Below are positions 3,066-36,554 of a DNA stretch of 64,000 nt, piece after piece. Numbering within the stretch: position 1 is the stretch's first letter; every line of letters begins with the position of its first letter. The stretch covers positions 1,039-65,038 of the forward strand of contig CAMWTK010000006.1 of NCBI GenBank assembly GCA_947177175.1, in the 5' to 3' direction. The translations under genes and the position numbers were made by a program. Source of the stretch: an uncultured Treponema sp. (GTDB lineage: Bacteria > Spirochaetota > Spirochaetia > Treponematales > Treponemataceae). A model generated the notes under the pieces. It was not told where the DNA came from. It saw nothing but the letters and a program-made list of their open reading frames with translations, and searched no databases.

Positions 3066-3074
3066 AAGAAAGCG

Positions 3075-19849: not shown

Positions 19850-19957
19850 TTAGTTTTTTCCGCGCCGCTCATAGCTTGCGGATTCCTGCGCCTCCGCTTC
19901 GGTCATAAAAACCGATCGTGGTTTTCCCGACGAATTGAAACACGTGCTGCTTTTCAT
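19850..19957 (-). pseudogene. Possible 35 aa remnant ORF coupled to the DUF6261-like gene
   Basis: ATGA overlap with upstream stop; MKSSTCFNSSGKPRSVFMTEAEAQESASYE. Confidence 0.25.
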
Positions 19958-20688
19958 CAGTCATCCGCTCCCGCGCCTGCCGCGCCGCTCTTCTTCTTTC
20001 CGCCCAATACTTCCTGCTTAAAATGCTCAATCTCGGTGTTGGCGTAGTCGATGAACGCGGCGTAGGCTTCCTCGCCCTCAAGCAGGGCGTGGGCGTTCAC
20101 GTGCAGCACGAGCATGCGGTATGCCTCGTCGCTCGCTGCCCGCGCCGCTTTGAGTGCGCCCGCTGTCTTTGCTGAGCGTTCGTCCGTGCGCTGACCCGTG
20201 AGCGAGCGTACTTCTTCGTTCGCCGCCTTGAGCCGCTCCACGAACGCTGTGAGCGACAGCATCTTCACCTGCTCGGCGAACTTGCCTTCCAAGTCCTGCA
20301 CGAAGTTCACGAGCAAGCCCGTCTCCTTGTCCAGCTGCGCCTGCACGTCGATTTTGTAGTCCTTGACGTGCTGTTGCAAAACTTTCGCCGCCTCCGCCAT
20401 GTCCTCCACGGGGAAGCTCGCGTAGCCCGCCACGGCCTTCTTGTAGCCCGCGTAGAGCTGGTCGCGCAGGCGGTCAGCCGCCGCGATTTTGTCGGTCGTG
20501 AGGCTCTTCGCGCTGGTTTGCAGGTTCTCGTCCTCCGCCGTGACCGCCGCCCGCAGTGCCTTCACCTGCGCCGCGCATTTCTCGGACACCGCCACGTCTT
20601 TCTCCGCGCGCTCCGCCATGTTGGACACGAACAGGAAATGCGCCGCGTTGTTCATGCCGCCCACATATACCGTCTGGATTTCTTTCAT
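19957..20688 (-). CDS. DUF6261-like all-helical protein (copy 1)
   Basis: MNNAAHFLF, ADRLRD, LDKETGLL, FIDYANTEI resemble recalled Bacteroidota DUF6261 proteins; AAGGAG RBS. Confidence 0.75.
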   Translation of the reverse strand: MKEIQTVYVGGMNNAAHFLFVSNMAERAEKDVAVSEKCAAQVKALRAAVTAEDENLQTSAKSLTTDKIAAADRLRDQLYAGYKKAVAGYASFPVEDMAEAAKVLQQHVKDYKIDVQAQLDKETGLLVNFVQDLEGKFAEQVKMLSLTAFVERLKAANEEVRSLTGQRTDERSAKTAGALKAARAASDEAYRMLVLHVNAHALLEGEEAYAAFIDYANTEIEHFKQEVLGGKKKSGAAGAGADD

Positions 20689-20715
20689 AGGAATGCTCCT
20701 TTGCCATATTGTTTT

Positions 20716-20735
20716 GCCGCCGCATACGCGGCGGT
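20716..20735. other. GC hairpin between array 1 and the DUF6261 RBS
   Basis: CCGCCGC-atac-GCGGCGG. Confidence 0.65.
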
Positions 20736-21057
20736 ATTTGTTGTGCCAAATTTGTACTTGTCGAGTGCTGAGAGGGTATCTTGCGCACCAAATTCGTGTT
20801 TGTCGAATGCTGACAGGGCATTTTGTGCGCCAAATTCGTACTTGTTGAGTGCTGGGAATGAATTTGTTGTACCAAATTCATGTTTGTTGACTGCGGGCAA
20901 GGAATTTTGTGTACCAAATTTGCACTTGTCGGTTGCTGACAAAGAATTTGTTGCACAAAATTCGTGTTTGTTGAATGCTGGTAAGGAATTTTGTGTATCA
21001 AATTCGTATTTGTTGAATGCTGACAAAGAATTTGTTGTGCAAAATGCATATTTGTTG
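20736..21057. repeat. Degenerate tandem array, 8 x 42 bp
   Basis: Units start at 20736, 20778, 20820, 20862, 20904, 20946, 20988, 21030. Confidence 0.95.
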
Positions 21058-21092
21058 GGAGAAGAAAGCCTGTCAGCAATGATTTTTGGGGT

Positions 21093-21211
21093 CTTGGGGT
21101 GCAACCCCAAGCTGTGCTGGGAAAGGGTGAGGGGTTGGGAGAGGGAAAACCCCGCTTCGGAAGTAGAGGGTTTTCCCTCTCCCAAGAAAGTTCCCACCGC
21201 TTCCAAGCGGT
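21093..21211 (+). repeat. Dispersed three-hairpin element (REP/MITE-like), copy A
   Basis: High similarity to 38194-38313; three stem-loops. Confidence 0.85.
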
Positions 21212-21226
21212 AAAAAACCGCGTTCA

Positions 21227-21255
21227 TTGCAGAAATCCCCCGCTTTCGCTATAAT
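21227..21255 (+). promoter_or_regulatory. Sigma70 promoter of valS
   Basis: TTGCAG-17-TATAAT. Confidence 0.75.
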
Positions 21256-21289
21256 ACTCGCTGAAAGACTGAGCGCATGGGGTGGCAAC

Positions 21290-24016
21290 ATGAAAGCGAT
21301 TGAACTGGAGAAGGCATACAATCCCAAGGATTTTGAGGACCGCATTTACGCGGCATGGGTGGAGCAGGGGCATTTCCGCCCGCACAGCGACGCGGATTCC
21401 CCCGTGCACGGGCGCGCGGGGCGCACGGACACCACATACACGGTGGTCATTCCGCCGCCGAACGTGACGGGCGTTCTGCACATGGGGCACGCGCTCAACA
21501 ACACGTTGCAGGACGTTGTGGTGCGCTACCACCGTATGTGCGGCGACGACACGCTGTGGGTTCCCGGCACCGACCATGCGGGCATTGCCACGCAGAACGT
21601 GGTGGAGCGGCAGCTCAAGAAAGAGGGCAAGAGCCGCAAGGACCTGGGGCGCGAGGCGTTCCTTGAGCGCACTTGGGCAGTGAAGCGCGACCATCATGCG
21701 ACCATCGTCCGGCAGCAGCAGACGCTCGGCAACAGCGTGGACTGGTCGCGCGAGCGGTTCACGATGGACGAGGGGCTGACAAAGGCCGTCCGCGACGTGT
21801 TCGTCACGCTGTACGAGCGCGGGCTGATATACAAGGGGCAGTACCTCGTCAACTGGTGTCCGCGCTGCGGCACTGCCCTTGCGGACGACGAGGTTGACCA
21901 CATCGACACGAACGGCGCGATGTATCATCTGTATTATGAATTCGCCGACGGCAGCGGAAAGATCGAGGTGGCAACGACTCGCCCGGAGACGTTTTTCGGC
22001 GACACGGCGGTCGCGGTCAATCCCGACGACGAACGCTACCGTTCGCTCGTGGGAAAGACGCTCCGCCTGCCGCTGACGGGCAAGGAGATTCCGATCATTG
22101 CCGACGCGTATGTCGATAAGGAATTCGGGACGGGCATGGTGAAGATTACGCCCGCGCACGACCCCAACGACTGGGAAGTGGGCAAACGCCACGGCCTAGA
22201 GGTGGTCAACCTGCTGAATCCCGACGGCACGCTCAACGAGAACGTGCCAGAAAAATACCGCGGGCTGACGTGCGAGAAGGCGCGCGCGCTGGTCGTCGCC
22301 GACCTGACGGAGGCGGGGCTGTTCAAGGGCGAGGAGAAGCTGACGCATTCGGTGGGGCATTGCTACCGCTGCAAGACCGTGGTCGAGCCGTACCTGTCGT
22401 TCCAGTGGTTCGTGCGGATGCGCCCGCTCGCCGACAAGGCGCTCGCGGCGTGGAAGAACGGCGACATCGAATTTTTCCCGCGCAAATGGGAGCGCACCTA
22501 CGCGCACTGGATGGAAAATATCCGCGACTGGTGCATCAGCCGTCAGCTGTGGTGGGGGCATCGCATTCCCGTGTGGTACTGCAAGGACTGCGGGGAGATG
22601 ATCGTCAGCCGCACCGACCCCGTGTCGTGTCCCAAGTGCGGCGCGTCCGCCGGTACGCTGGAGCAAGATCCCGACGTGCTGGACACCTGGTTCAGCGCGT
22701 GGCTGTGGCCGTTCAGCACGCTCGGCTGGCCGGAAGACACGCCCGACCTGAAAAAATTCTATCCGACTTCCGCGCTCGTGACCGCCTACGACATCATTTT
22801 CTTCTGGGTGAGCCGCATGATCATGGCGGGGCTGGAATTCACGGGCAAAGCCCCGTTCCACGACATTTATATCCACGGGCTGGTGCGCGACAAGCAGGGG
22901 CGCAAGATGAGCAAGTCGCTCGGCAACGGCATTGACCCGCGGGATGTCATCGAGCAGTACGGCGCGGACGCGCTCAAATTCACGCTGTCGTTCCTCTGCG
23001 CGCAGGGGCAGGACATCCTGATCGACAACGAAAGCTTCAAAATGGGCAGCCGATTCTGCAACAAAGTTTGGAACGCGAGCCGCTACATTCTGGGCAACTT
23101 GGAGGGGCGCACGCTCATTCCCGTGGCGGACAGCGACCTAACCGAACTCGACCGGTGGATGTACGTCGCGCTGGATAAGGCGACCCGCGACGTGCGCTCC
23201 GCGTTGGGCGGCTACCGCTACAATGACGCGGCGAGCACCGTGTACGAATTCTTTTGGAACTGTTTCTGCGACTGGTACGTGGAGGCGACCAAGCTGAGCT
23301 TCCGCGGCGATGACGAGCACGAAAAAGACCGCGCGGTTTCCGTCCTGCTCAACGTGCTGGAGGAAAGTCTCCGCCTGCTGCATCCGTTCATTCCGTTCGT
23401 GACCGAAGAGATTTACGGGAAGTTGCCGCGCGCGCAGATTATCGCCAACCGCCGCCAGGCGGGGACGCAGCGCATTCTGCCGAACGACGACTATGATTCG
23501 CTGCTGGTGAACGCGCCGTTCCCTGCCGCGAGCGACGACCGGAAGGACGAGACGGTTGCCGCGCGGTTTGCCGCTGTGCAGGACGTGATTCGGGCGGTGC
23601 GCGGCTTGCGCAACGAGTGCGGCATTGATCCCGCCGTAAAGCTGCATATCGCGCTGCACGTCGTTCCGGGCAGCGATGCCGAAAGCTGCCGCGAGAAGAC
23701 CGACTTGATCTGCCTGCTCGCGGGCGTGTCGGACATCGACTTTGTGGACGCGAAGCCCGCGCAGTCGATCGGCACGGTCGGTCCGGGCTTTGAGGCATTC
23801 ATTTTGATTGACGCCGCCATCAACAGGGAGCAGCTGCGCGCGCGCTTTCAGAAAGACATCGAGAAAACGACTGCCGAAGCCGCGCGCACGGAGGCAAAGC
23901 TGGGCGGCAAGTTCGCCGAGCACGCGCCCGCGGAGCTGGTGCAGGCAGAGCGCGAGAAGCTCGACGAGGCGAAAAGGCGCATAAAAACCTTGCATTCGTA
24001 TATTTCTGCGTTATAA
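21290..24016 (+). CDS. valS: Valine--tRNA ligase
   Basis: PPPNVTGVLHMGH, DWCISRQLWWGH, KMSKS, C-terminal coiled coil. Confidence 0.98.
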   Translation: MKAIELEKAYNPKDFEDRIYAAWVEQGHFRPHSDADSPVHGRAGRTDTTYTVVIPPPNVTGVLHMGHALNNTLQDVVVRYHRMCGDDTLWVPGTDHAGIATQNVVERQLKKEGKSRKDLGREAFLERTWAVKRDHHATIVRQQQTLGNSVDWSRERFTMDEGLTKAVRDVFVTLYERGLIYKGQYLVNWCPRCGTALADDEVDHIDTNGAMYHLYYEFADGSGKIEVATTRPETFFGDTAVAVNPDDERYRSLVGKTLRLPLTGKEIPIIADAYVDKEFGTGMVKITPAHDPNDWEVGKRHGLEVVNLLNPDGTLNENVPEKYRGLTCEKARALVVADLTEAGLFKGEEKLTHSVGHCYRCKTVVEPYLSFQWFVRMRPLADKALAAWKNGDIEFFPRKWERTYAHWMENIRDWCISRQLWWGHRIPVWYCKDCGEMIVSRTDPVSCPKCGASAGTLEQDPDVLDTWFSAWLWPFSTLGWPEDTPDLKKFYPTSALVTAYDIIFFWVSRMIMAGLEFTGKAPFHDIYIHGLVRDKQGRKMSKSLGNGIDPRDVIEQYGADALKFTLSFLCAQGQDILIDNESFKMGSRFCNKVWNASRYILGNLEGRTLIPVADSDLTELDRWMYVALDKATRDVRSALGGYRYNDAASTVYEFFWNCFCDWYVEATKLSFRGDDEHEKDRAVSVLLNVLEESLRLLHPFIPFVTEEIYGKLPRAQIIANRRQAGTQRILPNDDYDSLLVNAPFPAASDDRKDETVAARFAAVQDVIRAVRGLRNECGIDPAVKLHIALHVVPGSDAESCREKTDLICLLAGVSDIDFVDAKPAQSIGTVGPGFEAFILIDAAINREQLRARFQKDIEKTTAEAARTEAKLGGKFAEHAPAELVQAEREKLDEAKRRIKTLHSYISAL

Positions 24017-24043
24017 TTGTAGGAACGATACAGGGGGCGCGCC

Positions 24044-24667
24044 ATGGGAAAATATGAGATGAAGGTCGATAAGCCGGAGCAGATGGATCAGCAGCAGATG
24101 CTCCAGCTCAAGAATATTTTCCTTGCGCCCTACATGCAGATTGCGACCGCGCTGATCGGCAAACGCCGCCGCGCGGGCGGCAATATGTTCCGCCATCAGC
24201 TGGACACGATGACCATCCTCATCGACTACGGCTATATCGACAACATCCTGCTCAAGGCGAGCATCATCCACGACGTGGTGGAGGACATTCCCGGCTTTGA
24301 CCGGGACATCATCCGCTCGTGCGACGAGGACGGCTGCGAAGTGCTCGACTTGGTGCTCGAGGTGACCAAGCGCGACGGAGAGCAGAAAAACCAGTTCCTG
24401 CGCAGGATCATCGAGACGGGAAGCCACAAGGCGAAAGTCCTCAAGTGCGCCGACCGTATCAGCAACATGATTGCGCTGGGCTTCGTCACCGACGAGCAAT
24501 TCATCGAGCGCTACTGCGACGAGACCGAATATTTCATCTTCCCGATCGCGCTGGAAGTTGACTACAATATGTACCTTGAGCTGATTTCGTTGGTGATGAC
24601 GCGTCGCCAGGTGCTGGTGGAAAACGGCTACTTTGAGCGGAAGAAAGCGGAAAATCCTATTGTCTAA
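24044..24667 (+). CDS. Stand-alone HD domain protein of the RelA/SpoT hydrolase (small alarmone hydrolase) type
   Basis: RRAGGNMFRH, ASIIHDVVED, EVTK, KCADRISN. Confidence 0.75.
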   Translation: MGKYEMKVDKPEQMDQQQMLQLKNIFLAPYMQIATALIGKRRRAGGNMFRHQLDTMTILIDYGYIDNILLKASIIHDVVEDIPGFDRDIIRSCDEDGCEVLDLVLEVTKRDGEQKNQFLRRIIETGSHKAKVLKCADRISNMIALGFVTDEQFIERYCDETEYFIFPIALEVDYNMYLELISLVMTRRQVLVENGYFERKKAENPIV

Positions 24668-24744
24668 CCCGGTGAAATGCGGTATTCTTGGAGCAAGAAA
24701 CTTTTTGTACAGTGCCGTCTGCGGACGGTGAGAGGAGTTATACA

Positions 24745-25821
24745 ATGGCAGATGTAAGAGTTGCTATTAACGGCTTTGGTCGTATCGGTCGTTTGGCTTT
24801 CCGCCAGATGTTTGATGCCAAAGGCTATGAAGTTGTCGCCATCAACGATTTGACGAGTCCCAAAATGCTCGCCCACCTTTTGAAGTATGATACCGCGCAG
24901 GGCGGCTATGCCGGTCGTTTTGGCGAGGGCAAGCACACGGTTTCTTTTAAGGACGCGGTGCTTGAGGACGACGGCAAGACCGTCAAAGTGCCCGGCTCAA
25001 TCACGGTTGACGGAAAGGAAATCACCATTTATGCCAAGCCGAATGCGGCTGATCTGCCTTGGGGTGAGCTGAAAGTCGATGTCGTGCTGGAATGCACGGG
25101 CTTCTACGTGTCAAAGGCGAAGAGCCAGGCGCATATCGATGCGGGCGCGCGCAAGGTCGTCATTTCTGCTCCCGCCGGAAGCGACCTGCCCACGATCGTC
25201 TACAACGTGAACCACAAGACGCTGGCCAAGAACGACAACATCATTTCTGCGGCTTCCTGCACCACGAACTGCCTTGCGCCGATGGCAAAGGCGCTGAACG
25301 ATGCGTTCCCCATTCAGAGCGGCATCATGGCGACCATCCACGCGTACACGGGCGACCAGATGATTCTTGACGGTCCGCAGCGCAAGGGTGACCTCCGCCG
25401 CTCACGCGCGGGCGCGCAGAACATCGTCCCGAACAGCACGGGCGCGGCAAAGGCTATCGGTCTGGTCATCCCCGAACTGAACGGCAAGCTGATTGGCTCG
25501 GCGCAGCGCGTTCCCGTTCCGACCGGCTCGACCACCATTCTGACCGCAGTCGTCAAAGGCAGCGACGTTACCAAAGAGGCAATCAATGCCGCAATGAAAA
25601 AGGCTTCTGACCCCGAGACGTTCGGCTACACCGAGGACGAAATCGTTTCAAGCGACGTTATCGGCATGAAGTTCGGCTCGCTGTTCGACGCGACGCAGAC
25701 CATGGTGACCAAAATCACCGACGGGCTGTTTGAGGTGCAGGTCGTCTCTTGGTACGACAACGAGAACAGCTACACGTCACAGATGGTCCGCACCATCAAA
25801 TACTTCAGTGAGAACTGCTAG
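24745..25821 (+). CDS. gap: Type I glyceraldehyde-3-phosphate dehydrogenase
   Basis: [25 protein letters not shown]. Confidence 0.98.
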
Positions 25822-25846
25822 TCGCCCGCTGACGGCATAAAGACGC

Positions 25847-25875
25847 AAAGCCTCCGCTTCAGCGGGGGCTTTTTT
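25847..25875 (+). terminator. Intrinsic terminator after gap
   Basis: AAAGCCTCCGC-ttca-GCGGGGGCTTT followed by T-run. Confidence 0.85.
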
Positions 25876-25968
25876 GTCGCCCGAAAAATTTCCGTGGCAC
25901 GGCGGGGCGTATCGTTTCTCCGTGCCGAAAAATCGCATCAAAACCGCCCGGCTTTTCGCCGATTTTAT

Positions 25969-25997
25969 TTGACTATTCAGAATTCTTAGAGTATAAT
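25969..25997 (+). promoter_or_regulatory. Sigma70 promoter of the rny operon
   Basis: TTGACT-17-TATAAT. Confidence 0.85.
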
Positions 25998-26073
25998 ATA
26001 AGTGTATATTTGTATTTTGTCCTGCAAGAGGCCGCGAGGCTTCCGGGACGGGTGCAATGCGAGGAGTTGCAAT

Positions 26074-27603
26074 ATGAACGTGATGTTGTTCATCGTGCTC
26101 CCCCTTGCTGGAATTGTTCTTGGATGGATTATTCGCTGGTTGTATGCCAGATTTCAGTTGTCTGCGTCAGAGCAAAAAGCTGAACGTGTAAAACAGGATG
26201 CGATAAAAGAGGCCGAAGCACAGAAAAAAGAAATTTTGCTTGAAGCAAAGGATCAACTCATTCGGGAACGGAATCAGCAGGAGCGGGAGAACCGGGAGCG
26301 CCGCAGCGAAGTGCAGAAGTACGAAGCGCGGGTCGCCAAAAAAGAAGAATTGGTGGACAAACGTGCCGCCGAGTTCGACAAGAAAGAGCAGGATTTTGCC
26401 GGTCGCCTTGCGTCCATGAAAAAGCGCGAGGATGCGTTTGCGGCGCAGGAAGAGACGCTCCGTACCGAGTTGGAGCGGATTTCGGGGCTTTCTCAGCAGG
26501 AAGCGAAGAATTTGATCATCAAGAATCTCGAAAACGATGCCCGGCATGACGCGCAGGTGTTGCTCAATAAAATTGAGCAAGAAGCGCAGTTGACGGCGGA
26601 AAAGAAAGCGCAGGAGATTCTTGTCTCTACTATTCAGCGCGTGGCGACGGAGGTCACGAGCGATATTACGGTCACGACGGTTTCGCTTCCGAGCGACGAA
26701 ATGAAAGGTCGTATTATCGGGCGCGAGGGGCGCAATATCCGCACGCTGGAGACGCTGACGGGCGTGGACATCATTATCGACGATACGCCGGAGGCGGTGG
26801 TCATCAGCTGTTTTGATCCCGTGCGCAAAGAAATCGCCAAGCAGTCGCTGGAACGTCTGGTGACGGACGGGCGCATTCATCCTGCCCGCATCGAAGAAAT
26901 CGTGCAAAAAGTGACGCGCGAGATTCAGCAGAAGGTGTACGAAGAGGGCGAGAAAGCGCTGTTCGACCTGGGCATCCACAACATGAGCCAGGACGGCGTT
27001 CGCGCGCTCGGTCGCCTGTATTTCCGCATGAGCTATGGGCAGAACGTGCTCAGCCACAGCAAGGAAGTCGCGGAACTTGCGGCGGTGCTTGCGGCGGAAG
27101 TGGGTGCGAACCGGGAGCTTGCCAAGCGCGCCGCCTTGCTCCATGACATCGGCAAGGGCGCGGAGAGCGACAGCGATCAGAACCACGCGGAAGTGGGCGC
27201 GGAAATGGCGCGGAAAATGGGCGAGGACGCAAAAATCATCAATGCGATTGCCGCGCACCATAACGATGTTGAGGCGACGACCGTTGAGGCGGTCATCGTG
27301 CAGATTGCCGACGCTATCAGTGCCGCCCGTCCGGGTGCGCGCCGCGAGACGGTGGATAATTACGTCAAGCGTCTGGAAAACCTTGAGGAAGTCGCCGAGA
27401 AATTTGACGGCGTGGAAAAAGCCTATGCCATTCAGGCGGGGCGTGAGCTGCGTATCTTGGTCAACAATGAGAAAATTCCCGACGGCGAGGTCAAGGAGCT
27501 GGCGCAGAAAATCGCCAAGCAGATTGAGACGGACTTGCGCTATCCGGGAAGAATCAAGCTGACGATGATTCGTGAAACGCGGATTATCGAATACGCGCGG
27601 TAA
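26074..27603 (+). CDS. rny: Ribonuclease Y
   Basis: N-terminal TM, coiled coil, KH (MKGRIIGREGRNIR), HD (LLHDIGK). Confidence 0.97.
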   Translation: MNVMLFIVLPLAGIVLGWIIRWLYARFQLSASEQKAERVKQDAIKEAEAQKKEILLEAKDQLIRERNQQERENRERRSEVQKYEARVAKKEELVDKRAAEFDKKEQDFAGRLASMKKREDAFAAQEETLRTELERISGLSQQEAKNLIIKNLENDARHDAQVLLNKIEQEAQLTAEKKAQEILVSTIQRVATEVTSDITVTTVSLPSDEMKGRIIGREGRNIRTLETLTGVDIIIDDTPEAVVISCFDPVRKEIAKQSLERLVTDGRIHPARIEEIVQKVTREIQQKVYEEGEKALFDLGIHNMSQDGVRALGRLYFRMSYGQNVLSHSKEVAELAAVLAAEVGANRELAKRAALLHDIGKGAESDSDQNHAEVGAEMARKMGEDAKIINAIAAHHNDVEATTVEAVIVQIADAISAARPGARRETVDNYVKRLENLEEVAEKFDGVEKAYAIQAGRELRILVNNEKIPDGEVKELAQKIAKQIETDLRYPGRIKLTMIRETRIIEYAR

Positions 27604-27607
27604 TTGC

Positions 27608-29778: not shown

Positions 29779-30524
29779 AACGGCTGTGTGCGCTTGCCGC
29801 CTGTTTGCTTACGGTTTCCGTGCTGGCTGCCGAGACTATCACGTTCCGCGCGGATTCGCTGACGGGAACGGCGGGCAGCAAGAGCGACACGACGCGCCTG
29901 CAAGGCCATGCGTTCGTCAAGACCGAGACGATGGAGATTGCGGCGGATGTCATCGAGCTGTTCGGCGACAATTTCCGCTATATCACGGCGGAGGGGGCGG
30001 TTACGGGCAAGAACACCGAAAGCCTGATGGATTTTACGTGCGGAAAAATGCGGTATGACCGGCAGACAAAAATCGCCAATTTGGAAAGCTCCGTGCATTT
30101 GGTTGACGTGCAGAACGAAGTGACGGCGGACGCGCAGGTCATCGAGTATAATCAGACGATGGAAATTGCCGTCATGCAGATAAACGTGACGCTCAAACAA
30201 AAAGACAACACCTGTACGGCGGCGTATGCTGTCTACCGCAAGAACGACAAGATGCTGGAAATGAGCGGCAATCCCAAAATCGTGCAGGGCGAGGACACGT
30301 TCCGCGCGCAGGGAATTGCGCTTGACTTGGACACGCAGGAAATTACGTTGGACGGGCGCGTGAGCGGCACGGTGACGGACACCAAAAAAGACCCCGAACC
30401 GGCGGCGGACGCGCAGGAATCCGCGGACGAAAATCCTGCCGAAGAAGTTGCGGAAGATTCCGCGGAAACGACAGCGCCGGTGTTGGACGATGACGGGGCG
30501 ATGGACGGAGCGGGCGATGAATGA
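29775..30524 (+). CDS. lptA: LptA/OstA family periplasmic protein
   Basis: Signal peptide, OstA-like repeats, operon context. Confidence 0.75.
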
Positions 30525-31287
30525 CGGCATGAACGAGCCGATGGCAGGGGAACGCGGCGGATTGCATACGTTGCGCGCGAGTAGCCTCTATAAAATGTTC
30601 GGCAAAAAGAAAGTGGTGCAGGGCGTTGATTTTTCTATGCAGACGGGCGAGGTGCTCGGGCTGCTCGGTCCGAACGGCGCGGGAAAAACGACCACGTTTT
30701 ACATGATCGTGGGATTCCACAAGCCCACGGCGGGCGAGATTTTTTTGGACGACCAGCGCATTACCGGCTTGCCCATGTACAAACGCGCGCGCATCGGCAT
30801 TTCGTACCTGCCGCAGGAGCCGAGCGTCTTCCGCAAGCTCACCGTCGAAGAGAATATCTGGTCGATCTTGGAGACGCGCCGTGACCTGACGCGCGCGCAG
30901 AAAAAACAGCGGCTCGAAGAACTGATTGAGGAATTTTCGATTGGGCGGATACGCAAGCAGCAGGCGTTCACGCTGAGCGGCGGCGAGCGGCGGCGCACCG
31001 AAATCGCGCGTTCCCTTGCCATTGAGCCGAAATTCCTGCTTTTGGACGAGCCGTTCGCGGGCATTGACCCGATTGCCGTCGCCGACATCAAGGGGATGAT
31101 CACGCTGCTTGCCAAGCGCGGCATCGGCATTCTGATTACCGACCACAACGTGCGCGACACGCTTGAGATTACCGACCGCGCCATTATTATCAGCACGGGG
31201 CAGATTATGATTCAGGGGTGCAGGGACGAGATTTTGGCAAGTCCCGTCGCCCGTGAGATTTATTTGGGAAAAGATTTTTCGATGTAA
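30517..31287 (+). CDS. lptB: LPS export ABC transporter ATPase
   Basis: [40 protein letters not shown]; exact start uncertain. Confidence 0.93.
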
Positions 31288-31312
31288 TTTTTTCAGTTAT
31301 TTTTAAATATGA

Positions 31313-31341
31313 TTTACTTTTTTTGTCTGCGGGTGTATAAT
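31313..31341 (+). promoter_or_regulatory. Promoter of cheR, probably leaderless
   Basis: TTTACT-17-TATAAT, 7 nt before ATG. Confidence 0.6.
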
Positions 31342-31348
31342 AAGTTTT

Positions 31349-32167
31349 ATGGCAGACTTATTAACTGATGCAGAATTTGATACGTTCCGCAAGGTCATCT
31401 ATGACCAGAGCGGGATTACATTTTCAGCCACGAACCGTTCGATTCTTGACGGCCGACTGAAAGAAAACCTGCGCGAAAAGCAGATAGCGACCGTCGGCGA
31501 GTATTATAAGCTCATTATGTCTGACGAAAAAGAAATGAAGCAGATGTTGGATTCGGTCACCACCAATCTGACACGTTTTTTCCGCAATCAGCCGCATTTT
31601 GACGCGCTCGTGAATTATGTTATCCCGCACATCATCGAGCAGAAGCGGAAGACGGGCGACCAGCGCATCAACATTTGGAGTGCTGGCTGCTCCACGGGTG
31701 AGGAGCCGTACACGCTTGCGATGATTTTGTGCGACACGTTGCCGTCGCCGTATCGTTTCAATATCATGGCTTCCGACATTTCGCTGAAATCGCTCATGGT
31801 CGGGCAGCAGGGCTTTTATCCCGATTCGCGCGTTACAGGCATTCCGCCGAAATATCTTGCCCGCTTTTTCAAGAAGGTCGAAAAAGGCTATCAGGCGACG
31901 CCGGAATTGATGTCGCATATTAAATTTGACTACCACAACTTGCGCAACGATTCGGGCGTGCGCAACTTTGACATCGTGTTCTGCCGCAACGTGCTGATTT
32001 ATTTTGATGAGCCTGCGCAGAAAGCGGTTATCGACCGTTTTTATAACGCGATGGCACCGCATTCCTATCTGTTCATCGGTCATTCGGAATCGTTGTTCGG
32101 CATGGACACGAAATTCGAATTCTTGAAGACCGAATGGGCGTGTCTCTACCAGAAAAACGAAGGCTAG
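31349..32167 (+). CDS. cheR: Chemotaxis methyltransferase
   Basis: TTNLTRFFR, IWSAGCSTGEEPYT, FCRNVLIYFD. Confidence 0.96.
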   Translation: MADLLTDAEFDTFRKVIYDQSGITFSATNRSILDGRLKENLREKQIATVGEYYKLIMSDEKEMKQMLDSVTTNLTRFFRNQPHFDALVNYVIPHIIEQKRKTGDQRINIWSAGCSTGEEPYTLAMILCDTLPSPYRFNIMASDISLKSLMVGQQGFYPDSRVTGIPPKYLARFFKKVEKGYQATPELMSHIKFDYHNLRNDSGVRNFDIVFCRNVLIYFDEPAQKAVIDRFYNAMAPHSYLFIGHSESLFGMDTKFEFLKTEWACLYQKNEG

Positions 32168-32177
32168 GAGCAGAACG

Positions 32178-33404
32178 ATGGATGATATTTCCGTACTGGT
32201 TTGTGATGATTCCGCGCTGATGCGCAATTTGGTGAGTCGTGCTGTAGAAAGCGTTCCCGGTATGCATGTCGTCGGGCGCGCGGAAAACGGCAAGGATCTG
32301 ATTGAGAAGCTTCCGCAGGCAAATCCCGATGTCATTATCCTTGACATTGAGATGCCCGTGATGTCGGGTATTGATTTCCTCAAGCACCGCAAGGAAAACC
32401 GCATAAAGATCCCGGTCATTATCCTTTCGAGCGTCGTGGAAAAAGGTGCCGCCCTCGCCATGCAGTGCTTGGAACTGGGCGCGGCCGACTTTATTACCAA
32501 GCCGAACGGTTCTATTTCGGCCGATATTACCAAAATCTCCGACCGCTTGATCGAGATGATTTCGTCTTACGGCGGACAGTATGCCCGTCTGCACGGAAAG
32601 ACAGTCTACCGTGACGATTTCTATGCGAAAATCGCCGCCGACCGCGCTGTTGAACGCAAGTTGCAGGGGGTCATGAGCGAGGAGAAACTCAAAGAATTCC
32701 TTGACAAGGAAATCGCCAACAAGGCCGAGGAGGCGCGCAGGGCAAGCGAGATGCTCAAGGCGAGTCTCGCCGCCAAGCCCAAGGAGATTCCCGTCATCAC
32801 GCCGGTGCGTGCCAGCGGCAAGATTGACATTATTGCCATCGGCATTTCTACCGGCGGACCGAACGCGCTGCGCGATATGTTCAAGATGATTGACCCGCGC
32901 CTCAAGCAGCCGGTGCTGGTGGTGCAGCACATGCCGGCGGGCTTTACGAAGGAATTTGCCAGCAGCTTGAACCGCATCTGCGCGCTGGAAGTGAAAGAGG
33001 CGGAGGACGGCGACAAGATTGAGGGCGGTCATGTGTACATCGCGCCGGGCAGTTTCCATATGTTCGTGGAGAAGGACGGCTTGCAGTGCGTTATCAGGCT
33101 TTCGCAGGAGCCGCCGCGCAACGGACACCGGCCTTCTGCGGACGTGCTGTTTGAGAGCGTGGCAAAAGTGTACCAGAACAAGGCGCTCGGCGTTATTATG
33201 ACCGGCATGGGCAAGGACGGCGCGGTGCAGCTGGCAGAAATGCGCAAGCAGGGCGCGTGGACGCTCGGACAGGACGAAAAGTCTTCTATCGTATATGGCA
33301 TGCCGCGGGTCGCGAATGAACTGGGGGCGGTGCAGAAACAAGTGCCGCTGGCGCAGATGGCCGATGAAATCAGCAAGCTTGCGCGCGAGCACGTGGCGAG
33401 CTAA
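32178..33404 (+). CDS. cheB: Chemotaxis methylesterase/response regulator
   Basis: REC domain (DDSALMR, LDIEMP), GISTGGP, VQHMP, GMGKDG. Confidence 0.96.
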   Translation: MDDISVLVCDDSALMRNLVSRAVESVPGMHVVGRAENGKDLIEKLPQANPDVIILDIEMPVMSGIDFLKHRKENRIKIPVIILSSVVEKGAALAMQCLELGAADFITKPNGSISADITKISDRLIEMISSYGGQYARLHGKTVYRDDFYAKIAADRAVERKLQGVMSEEKLKEFLDKEIANKAEEARRASEMLKASLAAKPKEIPVITPVRASGKIDIIAIGISTGGPNALRDMFKMIDPRLKQPVLVVQHMPAGFTKEFASSLNRICALEVKEAEDGDKIEGGHVYIAPGSFHMFVEKDGLQCVIRLSQEPPRNGHRPSADVLFESVAKVYQNKALGVIMTGMGKDGAVQLAEMRKQGAWTLGQDEKSSIVYGMPRVANELGAVQKQVPLAQMADEISKLAREHVAS

Positions 33405-33418
33405 TTCGTGCGGAAATC

Positions 33419-33829
33419 TTACACCACTTGCAGGATTTCCGGCTTAAGAAAATGAAGGCGGCTGCGGCTGACGGCAAAGACAATGCCGGCGGACACCGCC
33501 AAAAAAGACATGGCACAGACGGCTTTGAAAGTTTCCGTGCTTTCAAAGCCGATTTTTTTTGCGATGAGTCCCGACAGCAGGTAACCGGCAACCGCGCTGG
33601 CGACGGGAACGATGAGCGAAATCAGCCCATGCACGGCGCGCGTGAACCGTGAGCGGCCGATACGCACGACCGTTCCCTTTCCGACGGAAAAATGGCGGCT
33701 GTTTGCCACGGCGAACGGCTTTCCGCGCTGAAGACAGCCGGTCGTGCAGGTGACGCAGGCTTGGGTGATGAGCTGCATGGCGAGAATTTCGTCGTCATTG
33801 ACCTGGACGATAAACGCGTGGCTATGCAT
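33419..33829 (-). CDS. RseC/MucC family membrane protein
   Basis: CVTCTTGC motif then two TM helices; ATG overlaps the TPR gene stop. Confidence 0.65.
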   Translation of the reverse strand: MHSHAFIVQVNDDEILAMQLITQACVTCTTGCLQRGKPFAVANSRHFSVGKGTVVRIGRSRFTRAVHGLISLIVPVASAVAGYLLSGLIAKKIGFESTETFKAVCAMSFLAVSAGIVFAVSRSRLHFLKPEILQVV

Positions 33830-34358
33830 GGTGCTTTCCGTCGGGGCTGATATGGCGCATCTGCCGTTTGCACTGCTCGACACCTGCCGTGTTTCCCAGT
33901 TCCTCATAGGTATCGCGCAGGTTGTAGAGCGCGTCGTAATAGTACGGATTTATCGAGACGGCCTGCTCAAAGGCATCGCATGCAAGGGCGTATTCGGAGC
34001 GGTTGAAATAGATGACCCCGATCGTGTTCCATACGTGCGCGTTCGATGGGTTTTTGTCGATTCCTTCCGTGCAGTACGCCAGCGCCTCGTCGTAGTTTCC
34101 TATGCTGTAGCAGATAATCGCGAGCGTTTCGATGATGTCGTCGTCGTCGCTGTTGATGGCGTAGGCTTTTTCGAGCGCGCGGCGGGCATTTTGCAGGTCG
34201 CCCGCGTCGCGGTACGTAATGCCGAGGTTGAACCAGAGCAGGTGATTGTAGCGTTCCAGCGACAGCGCGCGCTTGAAGCAGGCGATTGCCTCGGGGTAGT
34301 TGCCTTGCTGCGCGAGTTCGATTGCCTGCGTGTTCAGGTTTTCGGGCGATTCTCTCAT
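33822..34358 (-). CDS. TPR repeat protein
   Basis: WFNLGITY, WNTIGVIY, LYNLRDTY TPR motifs. Confidence 0.88.
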   Translation of the reverse strand: MRESPENLNTQAIELAQQGNYPEAIACFKRALSLERYNHLLWFNLGITYRDAGDLQNARRALEKAYAINSDDDDIIETLAIICYSIGNYDEALAYCTEGIDKNPSNAHVWNTIGVIYFNRSEYALACDAFEQAVSINPYYYDALYNLRDTYEELGNTAGVEQCKRQMRHISPDGKHHA

Positions 34359-34364
34359 GGCGGC

Positions 34365-35429
34365 CTACTCTTTGCGCAGGGAGTCGAACAGAGCGCCAAT
34401 CAGCTGGCTTGCCTCGCCGTCCGTGTGATAGAAACCGCTCAGCTCGCGGCTCTTGCGAAGCACGAGGTCGTTGCCCTGCGCGCGCGCTTTTTCGATGGCG
34501 TCGCTTTCGGAGAGCAGGGCGATTGCCTGTTCGACGGCGGGCGACGCGATGCCTTCGGCACGTGCCTGGGCGAACAGCGTTTCGAGCGCGGGTCGGTCGC
34601 CGGGGCGTTCCTGGAGGTGCAGGAGCACGGGGAGCGATTTTTTGCCCTCTACGATGTCGTCGCCGCGCTGTTTGCCGGGATTGCCCGTGGTCAGGTTGGT
34701 CACGTCGTCGATAATCTGGAATCCCACGCCGATGTCCTCGGCAATGCTCCCGGCGCGCTCGGCTTCTTCTGCCGTGCCGCCGCCCGCGAGCAAGCCGGTC
34801 TTGACGGCAAGGCGGGCGAGCGTTCCCGTCTTGTTGCGTACCATCGCCGTGTACTCGTCAACTGACGGCACGAGCGCGGTCTGTTTGTGCCACCGGATGT
34901 CCATTGCCTGTCCCAAATGCAGGCGGCGCAGTTCATGCAGGTAGAGCGCATAGAACGTGTTTTTCTGCGCGTCGGGCAGGGCGAGCGATTCGATGCACGC
35001 GGCCGCCTCAAAATAGAGCCAGCTGGCGGCGTTGAGCGCGGTGTCCGTGCCGAACGTGACATGCGCCGCCGGTTTGCCGCGCCGCATGTCCGCGCAGTCC
35101 TCGATGTCGTCATGGATCAGGCTCGCGGTGTGCGCGAATTCCACGAGCGGGGTGAGCCGGTAGGCGATTTCGCCGCTGGCGGCGCACGTGCCTTTTGCGT
35201 CGGCGGCAAGCTCCGCGCACAGCACGAGCAGCAGCGGCCGCCACCGTTTGCCGCCGAGCGCGAGCAGGTCGTGGTTGGGCGCGATAAGTTCGTTGATGTG
35301 CGCGCTGTTCACGCAGGGGTCGAGCGCGCCGAACGACCGCTCCTGCCAGTCCGGGTTTGTCTGCGGCGGCAGTGCCTGCGCGAGCACCGCCTCAATCTTA
35401 TGCAGCCGCGAAAAAAAACGTGCGTCCAT
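34365..35429 (-). CDS. Polyprenyl diphosphate synthase
   Basis: GGKRWRP, LIHDDIED...RRG, KTG, FQIIDD, DIVEGK. Confidence 0.93.
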   Translation of the reverse strand: MDARFFSRLHKIEAVLAQALPPQTNPDWQERSFGALDPCVNSAHINELIAPNHDLLALGGKRWRPLLLVLCAELAADAKGTCAASGEIAYRLTPLVEFAHTASLIHDDIEDCADMRRGKPAAHVTFGTDTALNAASWLYFEAAACIESLALPDAQKNTFYALYLHELRRLHLGQAMDIRWHKQTALVPSVDEYTAMVRNKTGTLARLAVKTGLLAGGGTAEEAERAGSIAEDIGVGFQIIDDVTNLTTGNPGKQRGDDIVEGKKSLPVLLHLQERPGDRPALETLFAQARAEGIASPAVEQAIALLSESDAIEKARAQGNDLVLRKSRELSGFYHTDGEASQLIGALFDSLRKE

Positions 35430-35462
35430 GTCTCCTAGTATAGTGCAGGAACGGCGAAAAGT

Positions 35463-36137
35463 CTATGCCACGCTTGCGTTTGCTTTGGCAATCTCAACGT
35501 CGGCTTTTGCGGCGAAATCCGCGTACTCCGCATTCACCGCGCCCATTGCCGTGAGGTAGGGCACGAGCTTTTCGTTGATTGCGGCGAGCAGGGGCTTCTT
35601 TATCGAGTATGCCGACTCGCCTTTTGCGGCGGTCGCGGTGTCGTTGGCGGCGTTGAACTCGTCCTGCGCGGTGCGGAGCGAGGCGATTAAATCGGCAACG
35701 CCGTCGAGCGACTTGATTGCGTCGGCAAGACTTTCCGCGGCGAAGTCCTCCAGCATCGATTCAATCAAAGAAGATTCGCGCGCGTAGGTCTCATTCACAA
35801 TTGACTTGCCGTACTTGTCGTAGGTGGCGAGCAGGCGTTCGGCGGCGGCTTTCTTTGCGGCGATGGGAATCGCCCCGTAGCCCGAAAGCAGCGTGCCGAG
35901 CGAGCGGATTATCTCGTCGCGCTTCGCGTCCGCGTCCTCGAGCGACCGGGACACCTTGTCCGCCTTGATTGCCGTGGTGATTTTGGCGGAGAGCGTCTCC
36001 ACCTCGCCCATGATCGCCGCGAGCGCGGCATCTTTCGCGACCGCACCGTCCTTGGCGGCCTCCTTGTAGATGCGCACGAGCGCGTCCGATACGGTGTCCG
36101 CGTCGGTGATGCGGACGTTCTGTTTCACTTTTTTCAC
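35463..36137 (-). CDS. DUF6261-like all-helical protein (copy 2), 224 aa
   Basis: GTG start with AAGGAGG RBS; ADAKRD...GY...P...AAERL...Y pattern shared with copy 1. Confidence 0.72.
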   Translation of the reverse strand: MKKVKQNVRITDADTVSDALVRIYKEAAKDGAVAKDAALAAIMGEVETLSAKITTAIKADKVSRSLEDADAKRDEIIRSLGTLLSGYGAIPIAAKKAAAERLLATYDKYGKSIVNETYARESSLIESMLEDFAAESLADAIKSLDGVADLIASLRTAQDEFNAANDTATAAKGESAYSIKKPLLAAINEKLVPYLTAMGAVNAEYADFAAKADVEIAKANASVA

Positions 36138-36149
36138 ACGTTCCTCCTT

Positions 36150-36165
36150 CGGCGGATAACCGCCG
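36150..36165. other. GC hairpin between array 2 and the DUF6261 RBS
   Basis: CGGCGG-ataa-CCGCCG. Confidence 0.6.
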
Positions 36166-36167
36166 TT

Positions 36168-36505
36168 TTTTGCTTGTCGCCCGCCTTTGCGTCGAGAAGC
36201 GAACAAAACTTTGTTTTCTGCCCGTTTTTGCGTCAGGACAAAAAACAAATGTTTGTTTGTTCCTCGCTTTCGCGTTGGGGAGCGAAAAAACATTTGTTCG
36301 CTCGCCGTTTTTGCGTCCGGGCGAGCAAAAAACATTTGTTTGTTCTTCGCTTTCGCGTTGGGGAACGAAAAAACATTTGTTCGTTCGCCGTTTTTGCGTT
36401 TGGGCGGGCAAAAAACATTTGTTCGTTGCCCGCTTTTGCGTTGGGGAGCGAAAAAACATTTGTTCGTTCGCCACTTTCGCGTTGGGCAGACAAAAAATTT
36501 TTGTT
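36168..36505. repeat. Degenerate tandem array, about 8 units mostly alternating 42/41 bp, each a stem-loop
   Basis: TTTGTT anchors at 36210, 36252, 36293, 36335, 36376, 36418, 36459, 36500. Confidence 0.93.
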
Positions 36506-36554
36506 TGCCGTGCGCCATGAAAAGAAAACCCGCCCGCGCCGAAGCGGGGCGGGG

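Follow-up and report, generated by a model that had tools for sequence, protein, structure and literature searches.

Tandem-repeat arrays upstream of DUF6261 genes co-vary with six N-terminal residues of the encoded proteins

Two DUF6261 cassettes in a Treponema chromosome

The window analysed here, a 64 kb (64,000-nucleotide) stretch of a Treponema chromosome, contains two DUF6261 genes, both on the minus strand. The layout shared by the two, in which a repeat array is followed by a GC hairpin, a ribosome-binding site and the gene, had been recognised in the original prediction and is real for both copies. The features are the following:

19957..20688, minus strand: DUF6261 gene, copy 1 (243 aa; Pfam PF19775, E 3.4e-46)
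20656..20673, minus strand: codons 6-11 of copy 1 (T-V-Y-V-G-G), proposed reading head, which fits class B arrays (mutual information with array class)
20696..20701, minus strand: Shine-Dalgarno AAGGAG of copy 1, read from the sequence
20715..20736, minus strand: GC hairpin CCGCCGC-GTAT-GCGGCGG, separating array 1 from the ribosome-binding site
20737..21057, minus strand: array 1, 7.5 units of 42 bp, class B (Tandem Repeats Finder and register)
20776-20795, 20818-20837, 20860-20879, 20902-20921, 20944-20963 and 20986-21005: array 1 dyads (motif search)
35463..36137, minus strand: DUF6261 gene, copy 2 (224 aa, GTG start; Pfam PF19775, E 1.5e-19)
36102..36119, minus strand: codons 7-12 of copy 2 (N-V-R-I-T-D), which align to the proposed reading head of copy 1
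36143..36148, minus strand: Shine-Dalgarno AGGAGG of copy 2, read from the sequence
36150..36165, minus strand: GC hairpin CGGCGG-TTAT-CCGCCG, directly before the copy 2 Shine-Dalgarno
36198..36507, minus strand: array 2, about 7.5-8 units of 41-46 bp (Tandem Repeats Finder and register)
36529..36548, minus strand: intrinsic terminator of the upstream minus-strand gene, a hairpin followed by TTTTCTTTTC, forming the upstream boundary of cassette 2

Both proteins match PF19775 above its gathering cut-off of 27 bits (157.4 bits for copy 1 and 70.9 bits for copy 2), which upholds the DUF6261-like label they had been given. They share only 25% identity, across 92 residues, and copy 2 is a member of a divergent DUF6261 subfamily, for which 333 homologues were found. 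The AlphaFold2 model of copy 1 (pLDDT 90.7) has ten helices, with residues 232-243 disordered, and predicts an all-helical bundle with a disordered C-terminal tail. The all-helical, non-RNase-like character expected of these proteins is borne out by this model, and structure searches found no ToxN, Kid or HEPN relative; Foldseek with the model gave no relative with an E below 0.09, and PADLOC returned no match. Neither a helix-turn-helix nor a ribbon-helix-helix was found in Pfam, NCBIfam and PDB profile searches, and a profile search did not detect a KfrA_N domain. The DUF6261 proteins are acidic (pI 5.0-5.5), without a basic N-terminal patch.

Array 1 was recovered by Tandem Repeats Finder with a period of 42, 7.4 copies and 73% matches, together with super-periods of 84 and 126 bp, and on the minus strand its 7.5 units keep a register that is exact at 42 nt. 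Each unit is formed by a RACAAR-containing flank and the dyad GAATTTG-N5-CAAATTC; the dyad motif has eight matches at six sites, spaced by exactly 42 bp, with none expected by chance, and a motif search of the whole window found none outside the array. Array 2 has a period of 41, or of 83 with 3.7 copies, the latter reflecting two alternating unit types that produce an 83 bp super-period, and its recurrent core, CCCCAACGCGAAAGCG, gives four matches against 0.17 expected, in the whole window only within the array. The predicted number of about eight units of 41-42 bp per array agrees with these values (about 7.5 units, period 42 or 41). The TTTGTT anchors described earlier correspond to RACAAR on the gene strand and are periodic in both arrays, with 42-nt spacing in array 1 and about 41-nt spacing in array 2. 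In Treponema arrays RACAAR is biased towards the gene strand (0.49 per unit, versus 0.08 on the other strand), but regular anchors are found in only 18 of 49. The description of the arrays as palindromic likewise applies to both arrays of the window, but a significant dyad is present in only about half of the array classes.

The hairpin of copy 1 adjoins array 1, and that of copy 2 lies downstream of a final degenerate array 2 unit. On the plus strand their loops read ATAC and ATAA, matching the predicted ATA(C/A), and, also as predicted, no U-tract follows the hairpin on the gene strand at either cassette. A perfect GC hairpin within 110 nt of the start codon is frequent, not universal, being found at 34 of 48 Treponema loci and missing in 14. 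The hairpin of copy 1 occurs with class A and class B arrays alike, and is thus not array-class specific; hairpin variants carry compensatory changes (CCGTCGC/GCGACGG, GCCACA/TGTGGC).

Generality of the array and its co-variation with the protein N-terminus

Upstream of DUF6261 genes the best self-similarity lag is 41-43 bp at 68 of 70 genome loci, and at 63 of 67 held-out metagenome loci. Control regions rarely have this lag (downstream, 4 of 59; far upstream, 5 of 55), which excludes a chance origin of the genome arrays. Tandem Repeats Finder detects arrays at about 45 of 49 Treponema loci and also in Tannerella, Prevotella and Phocaeicola, and degenerate arrays are present at 22 of 23 Bacteroidales loci. 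The search for arrays upstream of homologues that the original prediction proposed, run here with Tandem Repeats Finder and with the lag, thus finds them at most loci, and the array is a general feature of DUF6261 genes. The sole pseudogene seen (L032, with a stop at codon 3) is without a detectable array. The neighbouring genes are unrelated from locus to locus and the operator motifs occur nowhere else in the window, so the cassette is self-contained.

The arrays fall into many unrelated, mutually exclusive sequence classes. In the aligned proteins, residues 6-11 follow the array class almost perfectly, which is not true of the other ~230 residues. The columns with the highest mutual information with array class are residues 8, 11, 10 and 7 (2.15, 1.87, 1.72 and 1.36 bits, of 2.48), all other alignment columns having 0.91 bits or less, and the maximum over 1000 label permutations was 1.07 bits. 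Whole-protein identity is 83% within array classes and 81% between them. The head has a regular pattern, in which conserved hydrophobic residues at 7 and 9 alternate with hypervariable residues at 6, 8, 10 and 11. The co-variation is seen in Treponema paralogues, in Bacteroidales and in the held-out metagenome loci. In Bacteroidales, EIYLGR pairs with the array motif GATTGCNGCAATC, DINIQR with TTGATTGCAATCAA, DISLPR with RCGTTTCTT, and T[LI]S[LV]ER with GAAACAATGTTTC. Among relatives of copy 2, L086 (S-V-R-I-T-D), an orthologue, falls into the array class of copy 2, and L084 (N-M-R-V-A-E) and L081 (S-L-R-V-T-E) have array classes other than this one.

Relatedness was controlled for by taking identity over the other 205 residues. 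For pairs at least 95% identical there, the array is shared by 88% of those with the same residues 8, 10 and 11 (n=234), versus 5.6% of those with different residues (n=18), and at 90-95% identity the corresponding values are 85% and 9.5%; in these comparisons of sequences the rule survives the control. L139 (DINIQR) and L141 (DISIQR), which share 98% identity outside this head, form in effect a putative natural specificity switch: Asn8 goes with the core TTGATTGCAATCAA and Ser8 with the core TTGCAAGCTTGCAA. One head residue and a 14 bp core change together, while the constant array flank ACTTTT and the promoter-proximal region are kept, positions -100 to -1 being 78% identical.

The array as a binding site and competing readings

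Over roughly 200 related loci, the co-change of six N-terminal amino acids with the repeat sequence suggests a new family of site-specific nucleic-acid-binding proteins, each recognising its own array. We infer that each DUF6261 protein binds its own phased array directly, probably as double-stranded DNA near the promoter, a proposal that we hold with moderate confidence. The pairing of protein and cognate array that the original prediction put forward thus has, in its general form, strong support from the co-variation of residues 6-11, but the type III toxin-antitoxin frame in which it was placed is not supported.

That DNA is favoured over RNA as the ligand comes from several observations. 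In Prevotella and Segatella arrays an asymmetric motif is present in both orientations, and the distant orthologues L084 and L081 have a conserved promoter-like element, TTGTCG-18-TATTAT, between array and gene. For Parabacteroides distasonis a single RNA run was clear; in it a transcript contig starts 22 nt before the ATG, and no RNA contig of that run crosses the periodic region. Consistent RNA structure is also missing, with arrays barely above shuffled sequence of the same composition (mean z -1.5 and -1.1). The promoter-like element and the P. distasonis contig point to promoters that lie after the array and before the gene in several lineages.

The RNA alternative would have the array transcribed, as a long 5' leader or a separate RNA, with the head binding the repeated RNA units, leading to autoregulation of translation or stability, or to a type III-like toxin/antitoxin-RNA pair, and with the GC hairpin as attenuator or 5'-end stabiliser. 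Type III loci (ToxIN, CptIN, TenpIN) do resemble the cassette in having tandem 35-45 nt units, a palindrome and one protein gene, with array and protein cognate. In these loci the toxin is an endoRNase built on a Kid/MazF-like beta core, the toxin gene follows a Rho-independent terminator and a single promoter lies upstream of the array (PMC5086642), in contrast to the all-helical DUF6261 protein, the lack of a gene-strand terminator, the hairpin missing at 14 loci and the promoters placed after the array. The RNA data on array transcription are mixed. Both arrays are covered by contigs of metatranscriptome X20, about as deeply as the genes, and one contig links the start of the coding sequence, through the hairpin, to 99 nt upstream, which makes transcription of at least part of the array probable in that run. 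Coverage of the arrays in X7 and X11 is about ten times lower than that of the genes. The arrays of L022 and L030 extend to 16 nt before the ATG and must therefore be partly transcribed. The compensatory hairpin variants and the defence-type neighbours of some Prevotella loci (Abi_2, PLD nuclease, a restriction-modification system) also fit an RNA function, which we nevertheless regard as unlikely given the protein fold, the absent U-tract, the two motif orientations and the P. distasonis transcript. Counting against the DNA-binding model are the lack of a detectable DNA-binding domain, the acidic protein, the dyad missing in about half of the classes, the many Treponema loci whose array ends 16-100 nt before the ATG, and the X20 coverage.

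Alternatively, the array could be a centromere- or iteron-like maintenance site of mobile elements, with DUF6261 as a single adaptor to the segregation or replication machine of the host and autoregulation as a secondary effect. Such a role recalls sopC of plasmid F, which has 12 direct units of 43 bp, each with one inverted-repeat site for SopB (PMC3177203). It also recalls KfrA of RA3, an alpha-helical autoregulator encoded by a conjugative plasmid, whose N-terminal helix-turn-helix (residues 29-52) binds an operator of five 9-bp repeats, this specific binding serving autoregulation and maintenance (PMC7783346). The cassettes of Segatella copri and Prevotella merdae are part of a conjugative element with TraQ, a primase, DUF1896 and a topoisomerase, and the many non-overlapping specificities are reminiscent of incompatibility groups. 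Against this, no ParA, ParM or TubZ-type NTPase or Rep gene adjoins DUF6261 in any locus examined; the family is chromosomal or ICE-borne and essentially absent from plasmids (1 of 72,556 records, a 568 kb replicon), and on Treponema chromosomes it is present in ten or more copies, set among housekeeping genes, which makes a maintenance site improbable as the main function.

Least probable, and in our view very unlikely, is that there is no direct recognition, the arrays being minisatellites that evolve fast, or else upstream promoter elements recognised by host factors, and the coupling a matter of DNA neighbourhood while gene conversion homogenises the rest. This would fit the multi-copy state of the family (at least 14, at least 10 and at least 10 loci in three single Treponema MAGs), the gene bodies that are about 81-83% identical regardless of class, and the 50-300 bp between head and array. 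A simple linkage block is opposed, however, by the 5'UTR and hairpin between array and head, which are common to classes A and B and differ inside class A, by head residues that are conserved within a class although codons 6-11 vary synonymously there, and by the lack of any complementarity of codons 5-13 to the array. In addition, head variability is confined to residues 6, 8, 10 and 11, L139 and L141 differ as described, and the coupling is found in two phyla with different transcription machineries, for which one host-factor reader is not expected. If recombination had its boundary immediately behind codon 11 and the gene body underwent conversion, head and array would likewise stay tied together, but the purifying selection on the head within classes would be left unexplained.

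A proposed reading head and comparable systems

In the binding model that we prefer, the cassette would comprise a DUF6261 gene directly preceded by its candidate cognate sites, 2-16 units of 41-42 bp arranged head to tail. An extended N-terminal segment, residues 6-11, would act as the reading head and recognise the class-specific module of the unit, which in about half of the classes is a dyad of 13-20 bp. The helical body and disordered C-terminal tail are shared by all members, body length possibly setting the unit spacing. Since 42 bp corresponds to four turns of B-DNA, successive proteins would align on one face of the DNA and be in contact with their neighbours. With the resulting complex at the gene's own promoter, or a short way upstream of it, the protein would regulate its own gene, and a large nucleoprotein landmark specific to the site would form, in a layout analogous to plasmid operator and centromere arrays (the KfrA operator, sopC, parC). 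That head/array specificities are many and do not overlap suggests selection against cross-talk among copies that reside together on conjugative elements and chromosomes.

KfrA would share with DUF6261 an N-terminal DNA-reading part (putative here) followed by a long alpha-helical body, a direct-repeat operator (also putative here) at the gene's own promoter, and carriage by conjugative elements; the differences lie in the DUF6261 proteins having no detectable helix-turn-helix or KfrA_N domain, in the 2-16 units of 41-42 bp and in the proposed specificity residues. The sopC/SopB, parC/ParR and parH/ParG systems similarly have about ten head-to-tail units with one cognate protein, and specificities that differ between carriers, there plasmids. 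In contrast, sopC is located after sopAB and functions together with the ATPase SopA, and SopB is a ParB-type helix-turn-helix protein, whereas DUF6261 is without a linked NTPase and is not plasmid-borne.

Ribbon-helix-helix proteins (Arc, MetJ, CopG, omega, ParR, ParG) read bases with alternate side chains of an N-terminal strand, and show cooperative binding to tandem repeats at the promoters of their own genes. The same alternation is seen in the DUF6261 head, as in N-V-R-I-T of copy 2, but sequence and profile searches gave no similarity to these proteins, the DUF6261 body is about 200 residues longer and apolar residues (P, Y, F, A, V) are common in the head. The Par protein of pSK1, of about 240 aa, binds DNA through its N-terminal part, has a coiled coil in the middle and ends in a disordered C-terminus; it acts on repeats upstream of its own gene, without an NTPase. 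It is thus like DUF6261 in being a single protein of similar size, with a disordered C-terminus, upstream repeats and no NTPase; unlike DUF6261, it uses a helix-turn-helix and is plasmid-borne, and homology between the two was not detected. In passages of PMC11500499, pSK1 Par is cited as a single-protein partition system of staphylococcal plasmids.

Two cassettes in the window and the spread of their layout

The window is Treponema chromosome, neither phage nor plasmid, with a G+C content of 58.5% over the 64 kb, a strong GC3 bias (GC3 near 0.8) and housekeeping genes including valS, gap, rny, pyrG, lptC/A/B, cheR, cheB, polyprenyl synthase, dapA and asd; the nearest database proteins come from rodent-gut Treponema MAGs. 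A tRNA scan of the window found none, and an Rfam scan gave no match at the gathering score. All the elements that the original prediction had described for the two cassettes are present, namely tandem arrays detected by Tandem Repeats Finder (TRF), genes of the Pfam family PF19775 (DUF6261), GC hairpins and Shine-Dalgarno sites:

19957-20688, minus strand: DUF6261 gene, copy 1
20715-20736: GC hairpin of cassette 1, between array 1 and the Shine-Dalgarno site
20737-21057, gene strand (minus): array 1, TRF 42 bp x 7.4, in exact 42-nt register
35463-36137, minus strand: DUF6261 gene, copy 2
36150-36165: GC hairpin of cassette 2, between array 2 and the Shine-Dalgarno site
36198-36507, gene strand (minus): array 2, TRF 41 bp, or 83 bp x 3.7; eight units of 41-46 nt

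The two proteins are only 25% identical, and both are members of the family, scoring 157.4 bits (copy 1) and 70.9 bits (copy 2) against a membership threshold, the curated gathering score, of 27 bits. The operator motifs of each copy are confined to its own array.

Several other explanations of the arrays were rejected. They are not CRISPR arrays, since the units are contiguous, the whole 41-42 bp unit is repeated and there are no cas genes nearby. A sigma-70 promoter within each unit was discarded, as class B units (those of array 1) agree with the consensus at no more than about 8 of 12 positions; the GC-rich array classes have no -10 element. A promoter scan found none near array 1, and near array 2 a single match at 35437-35465, downstream of gene 2. 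Open frames cross both arrays, yet their translation was rejected because a period of 41 bp is common among the arrays and because the arrays are AT-rich although GC3 in the genome is so high; the ATGA stop-start overlap is an automatic consequence of the ATG AAA start and thus gives no support to translation.

DUF6261 is a large family (2042 clusters at 50% identity; 4756 proteins match at E <= 0.001), for which we found no literature on function. From a scan of one genome per species we took the best 80 loci, 53 from Treponema MAGs and about 25 from Bacteroidales, the latter at about 60% identity. Running TRF upstream of the homologues, as had been proposed, revealed arrays in front of most of them: in Treponema, arrays of period 41/42 (2-16 copies) lie 5' of about 45 of the 49 usable genes, and in Bacteroidales TRF reports them in Tannerella forsythia (41 x 7.3), Prevotella (42 x 6.6 and 42 x 4.3) and Phocaeicola. 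At Bacteroidales loci where TRF was blank, the autocorrelation maximum fell at 41 or 42 in 22 of 23. Overall, the best lag in the range 20-69 was 41-43 in 68 of 70 upstream regions, against 4/59 downstream and 5/55 far-upstream control regions, and a separate metagenome scan gave the same lag in 63 of 67 loci.

The gene of Prevotella nigrescens also has a 41 bp array. The PGAP start codon of this locus (L087; NZ_CP082843.1, 2339-3292) lies inside the array, the true ATG being likely at locus position 2478, and database proteins of about 300-400 aa (P0028, P0048, P0053, P0058 and P0091) have probably been over-extended in a similar way, through arrays free of stop codons. Many Treponema DUF6261 loci lie on contigs of 1-2 kb, which suggests that arrays and paralogy break assemblies. 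The arrays in this way explain two practical problems, broken short-read assemblies around DUF6261 genes and start codons called too far upstream. Upstream 41/42 bp periodicity is entirely missing from just one Treponema locus, a pseudogene (L032; MAG JAAVAO010000003.1, gene 3001-3702) whose codon 3 is a stop and whose head, FVPSH, is of class G; this single case fits array decay after gene death.

The GC hairpin is less general. A perfect hairpin within 110 nt of the start codon is found in 34 of 48 Treponema loci, typically ending about 27 nt 5' of the ATG and with several compensatory variants, and Bacteroidales loci have none. It is not tied to array class. The absence of a U-tract on the gene strand, pointed out in the original prediction, was borne out: there is no T-run downstream of the window hairpins on that strand, and the terminator scan scores the opposite strand only. 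We read the hairpin as a 5'UTR stem-loop or promoter-proximal structure of the Treponema lineage, and not as a defining part of the cassette.

Array class and the N-terminal head of the protein

Among the Treponema arrays there are at least seven classes, mutually exclusive and set by a variable module inside the unit. The co-phylogeny of protein and array, which the original prediction proposed as a check, is weak for the whole protein, with identities of 83% within and 81% between classes, and the signal is carried by residues 6-11, the proposed reading part or "head", which follow array class almost perfectly.

Residues 6-11 of Treponema DUF6261 proteins, by array class
Class A: (T/S)(L/I)PLT(S/T)
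Class B (window copy 1): T(V/F/I)Y(V/I/L)GG
Class C: SIFLGN
Class D: SIALVN
Class E: AFA(V/L)SH
Class F: TVA(I/L)TH
Class G: xFVPSH

The mutual information with class, out of 2.48 bits, is 2.15 for residue 8, 1.87 for residue 11, 1.72 for residue 10 and 1.36 for residue 7, and at most 0.91 for all remaining columns; 1000 label permutations gave a maximum of 1.07. The 5'UTR between array and head is not class-specific, as one hairpin-containing UTR occurs in both class A and class B loci, and class A loci alone have five or more UTR types. Codons 6-11 vary synonymously inside a class, indicating that selection acts on the amino acids, and together with the class-independent 5'UTR this means that head and array are not simply a single inherited block. 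Pairing of the array RNA with codons 5-13 was discarded, the longest complementary match averaging 5.4 nt against 5.6 nt in shuffled sequences.

Relatedness was controlled for with 128 pooled genome and metagenome loci, stratified by identity over the other 205 residues. At 95% identity or more, 88% of the pairs with the same residues 8/10/11 have a common array, against 5.6% of the pairs with different ones, and at 90-95% identity the corresponding values are 85% and 9.5%. In the pair L139 and L141 the proteins differ by Asn8/Ser8, plus Tyr5/Ser5 just beyond the head, and are elsewhere 98% identical; positions -100 to -1 are 78% identical, and the arrays keep the flank ACTTTT and exchange the 14 bp core TTGATTGCAATCAA for TTGCAAGCTTGCAA. 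In the subfamily of copy 2, L086 (head S-V-R-I-T-D) has the same array class as the window, and L084 (N-M-R-V-A-E) and L081 (S-L-R-V-T-E) share a different one. The correspondence extends to Bacteroidales, where four head groups match four array motifs one-to-one.

Family-wide, the head has the pattern x-[ILVF]-x-[LIVM]-x-x, followed by a conserved M-N-N-G-A-H, and 87 cluster representatives contain 83 distinct head hexapeptides. The reading strand of ribbon-helix-helix proteins has an alternating residue pattern, and the alternation of conserved hydrophobic and hypervariable positions in the DUF6261 head is alike, but profile searches give no support for membership: Pfam showed no ribbon-helix-helix similarity, whether searched with the full proteins or with 46 N-terminal segments (the latter at E up to 10), and no such chain appeared in a PDB profile search. 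Head-array pairs amount to dozens of natural specificity switches, one of them by a single head residue, and are unusually good material for a recognition code; they would also be useful for orthogonal regulator-operator design in Bacteroidales, which are important gut bacteria.

Loci with a DINIQR head have one extra operator-like copy (GATTGCAATC) between a conserved promoter-like TTTTTATATCTTAGC and the ATG (-62 to -46 in L139, with equivalent positions in L080 and L063), the location expected for an autorepressor site.

The protein and its probable ligand

The all-helical nature of the protein, recognized in the original prediction, is supported by the AlphaFold2 model of copy 1, a bundle of ten helices with a disordered tail (pLDDT 90.7), in which residues 1-13 of the monomer are non-helical (pLDDT 88). 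DUF6261 proteins are acidic. Foldseek returned only generic helical bundles, with nothing below E = 0.09 and no RNase in the PDB, and no structural relative in BFVD; searches of NCBIfam, PADLOC and PHROGs gave no match, and profile searches with the N-terminus brought up neither an RHH nor an HTH.

Several observations favour double-stranded DNA as the ligand. Forty-two base pairs correspond to four helical turns, and the arrays, originally described as palindromic, do contain dyads, although a dyad, of 13-20 bp, makes up the module in only about half of the classes. In Prevotella and Segatella the asymmetric motif TTGACGCACGTTTCTT occurs in direct copies with inverted copies flanking, and the stretch from array to gene in L081 and L084 contains a conserved promoter-like element. 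The RNA-seq evidence consists of assembled contigs without strand information, and several RNA-labelled runs resembled DNA; in the one run that behaves like true RNA, a Parabacteroides distasonis transcript contig has its boundary 22 nt 5' of the ATG, and no contig of that run covers the periodic region. RNA structure points the same way. The opposite strand of the unit array folds more stably than the gene strand in 37 of 50 arrays, but this difference vanishes on base-composition correction (mean z -1.5 for the gene strand and -1.1 for the opposite strand), so that it was rejected as real structure and the apparent advantage is due to G+T richness.

Other observations speak against DNA as the sole ligand, and binding of RNA by the DUF6261 protein, although less likely than binding of DNA, may occur. 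It would agree with the Treponema metatranscriptome run X20, in which arrays are covered at a depth similar to that of genes and one contig joins the start of the coding sequence to 99 nt upstream, hairpin included, and with L022 and L030, where the array ends 16 nt from the ATG. From these data at least the last units of Treponema arrays are probably transcribed.

Overall, each DUF6261 cassette is self-contained and pairs a protein with the phased repeat array cognate to it. As judged from the sequence patterns, the most likely mechanism is one in which the protein would bind its own array on DNA at the promoter, sequence-specifically and cooperatively, and, once array-bound, would autoregulate its gene and build a site-specific nucleoprotein structure.

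Known systems, genomic context and possible roles

The type III toxin-antitoxin systems, which the original prediction had used as an analogy, have a tandem array of short repeats directly 5' of a protein gene (PMC5086642), as do both window cassettes and 68 of 70 related DUF6261 loci. In those systems a single promoter lies upstream of the array, which is processed into unit-length RNAs, a Rho-independent terminator separates array and toxin gene, and the toxins are endoRNases of ToxN, AbiQ or CptN fold with a Kid/MazF-like beta core (PMC5086642). In contrast, DUF6261 is all-helical, with no RNase relative by Foldseek against the PDB and no PADLOC match, and its hairpins have no gene-strand T-run and are missing altogether in 14 of 48 loci. 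A type III identity was therefore rejected on fold and on the missing gene-strand terminator.

In layout, DUF6261 cassettes come closest to the KfrA operator (PMC7783346), to sopC/SopB (PMC3177203) and to the single-protein Par systems, and DUF6261 is outside all these families. KfrA-type proteins share a helical body and a direct-repeat array by their own gene or promoter (PMC7783346), but DUF6261 lacks their N-terminal HTH (KfrA_N), with no such Pfam match at E up to 1. Unlike ParABS/Sop-type partition systems, there is no linked NTPase (ParA, SopA, ParM or TubZ) among DUF6261 neighbours in the loci examined, and unlike iteron replicons, the cassettes lack a Rep domain and can number ten or more on a single chromosome, and the family is nearly absent from plasmids.

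Neighbours across loci include valS, BspA-like LRR proteins, polyprenyl synthase, a sulfatase, radical SAM proteins, a primase and a methylase, and no conserved partner gene was found in the neighbourhoods examined. A conjugative element that also encodes TraQ, primase, DUF1896, topoisomerase and a DpnII restriction-modification system carries the cassette in Segatella copri and Prevotella merdae, and such carriage may account for the 60% identity between phyla. Plasmid and phage collections yielded only one 568 kb Prevotella replicon and two unannotated faecal contigs. The family is expanded in the Treponema MAGs JAAVAM, JAAVAP and CAMWWZ (loci L001-L064), with at least 14, 10 and 10 copies among the best 80 loci. 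Within a single genome several copies belong to the same specificity class, so that, judging by head and array classes, one product could bind the array of another copy.

A more far-reaching reading, possible but tentative, is that DUF6261 carries a compact reading head of a new type, in which three or four residues of an N-terminal strand would set recognition of the ~14 bp core, and that the orthogonal pairs may serve as NTPase-free, single-protein identity or maintenance tags (centromere-like or for incompatibility) of Bacteroidales conjugative elements, expanded to at least ten copies in rodent-gut Treponema. If true, DUF6261 would have a new DNA-binding fold whose specificity code can be read, and the cassettes would be segregation or exclusion modules of a new, NTPase-free class. 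The head-array analysis itself provides DUF6261 with a concrete, testable molecular activity, with the proposed specificity residues and cognate site named for each member.

The window holds a third tandem array, which may be a further repeat array beside a DNA-binding protein gene, flanked by divergent genes:

55016-58366, minus strand: 1116-aa Big_2-domain protein
58369-58501: third array, period 23/46, ~5.7 copies, minus-strand unit roughly CCCTCACAYTAGGCTGT + 6 nt
58717-59466, plus strand: HU-like DNA-binding protein with DUF4469

Upstream of array 1, at about 21130-21180 (minus strand), there is a long GC-rich inverted repeat, GGGAGAGGGAAAACCC...GGGTTTTCCCTCTCCC, and a similar one lies between array and gene in another locus (L008), within 110 nt 5' of the ATG. 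In all runs coverage depth rises at this inverted repeat, possibly a small dispersed element such as a MITE or REP. Downstream of cassette 1, the region 12485-19488 encodes two BspA-type leucine-rich-repeat proteins and a 1271-aa protein with pectinesterase and GDSL lipase domains, surface and glycan-degrading functions typical of gut Treponema.
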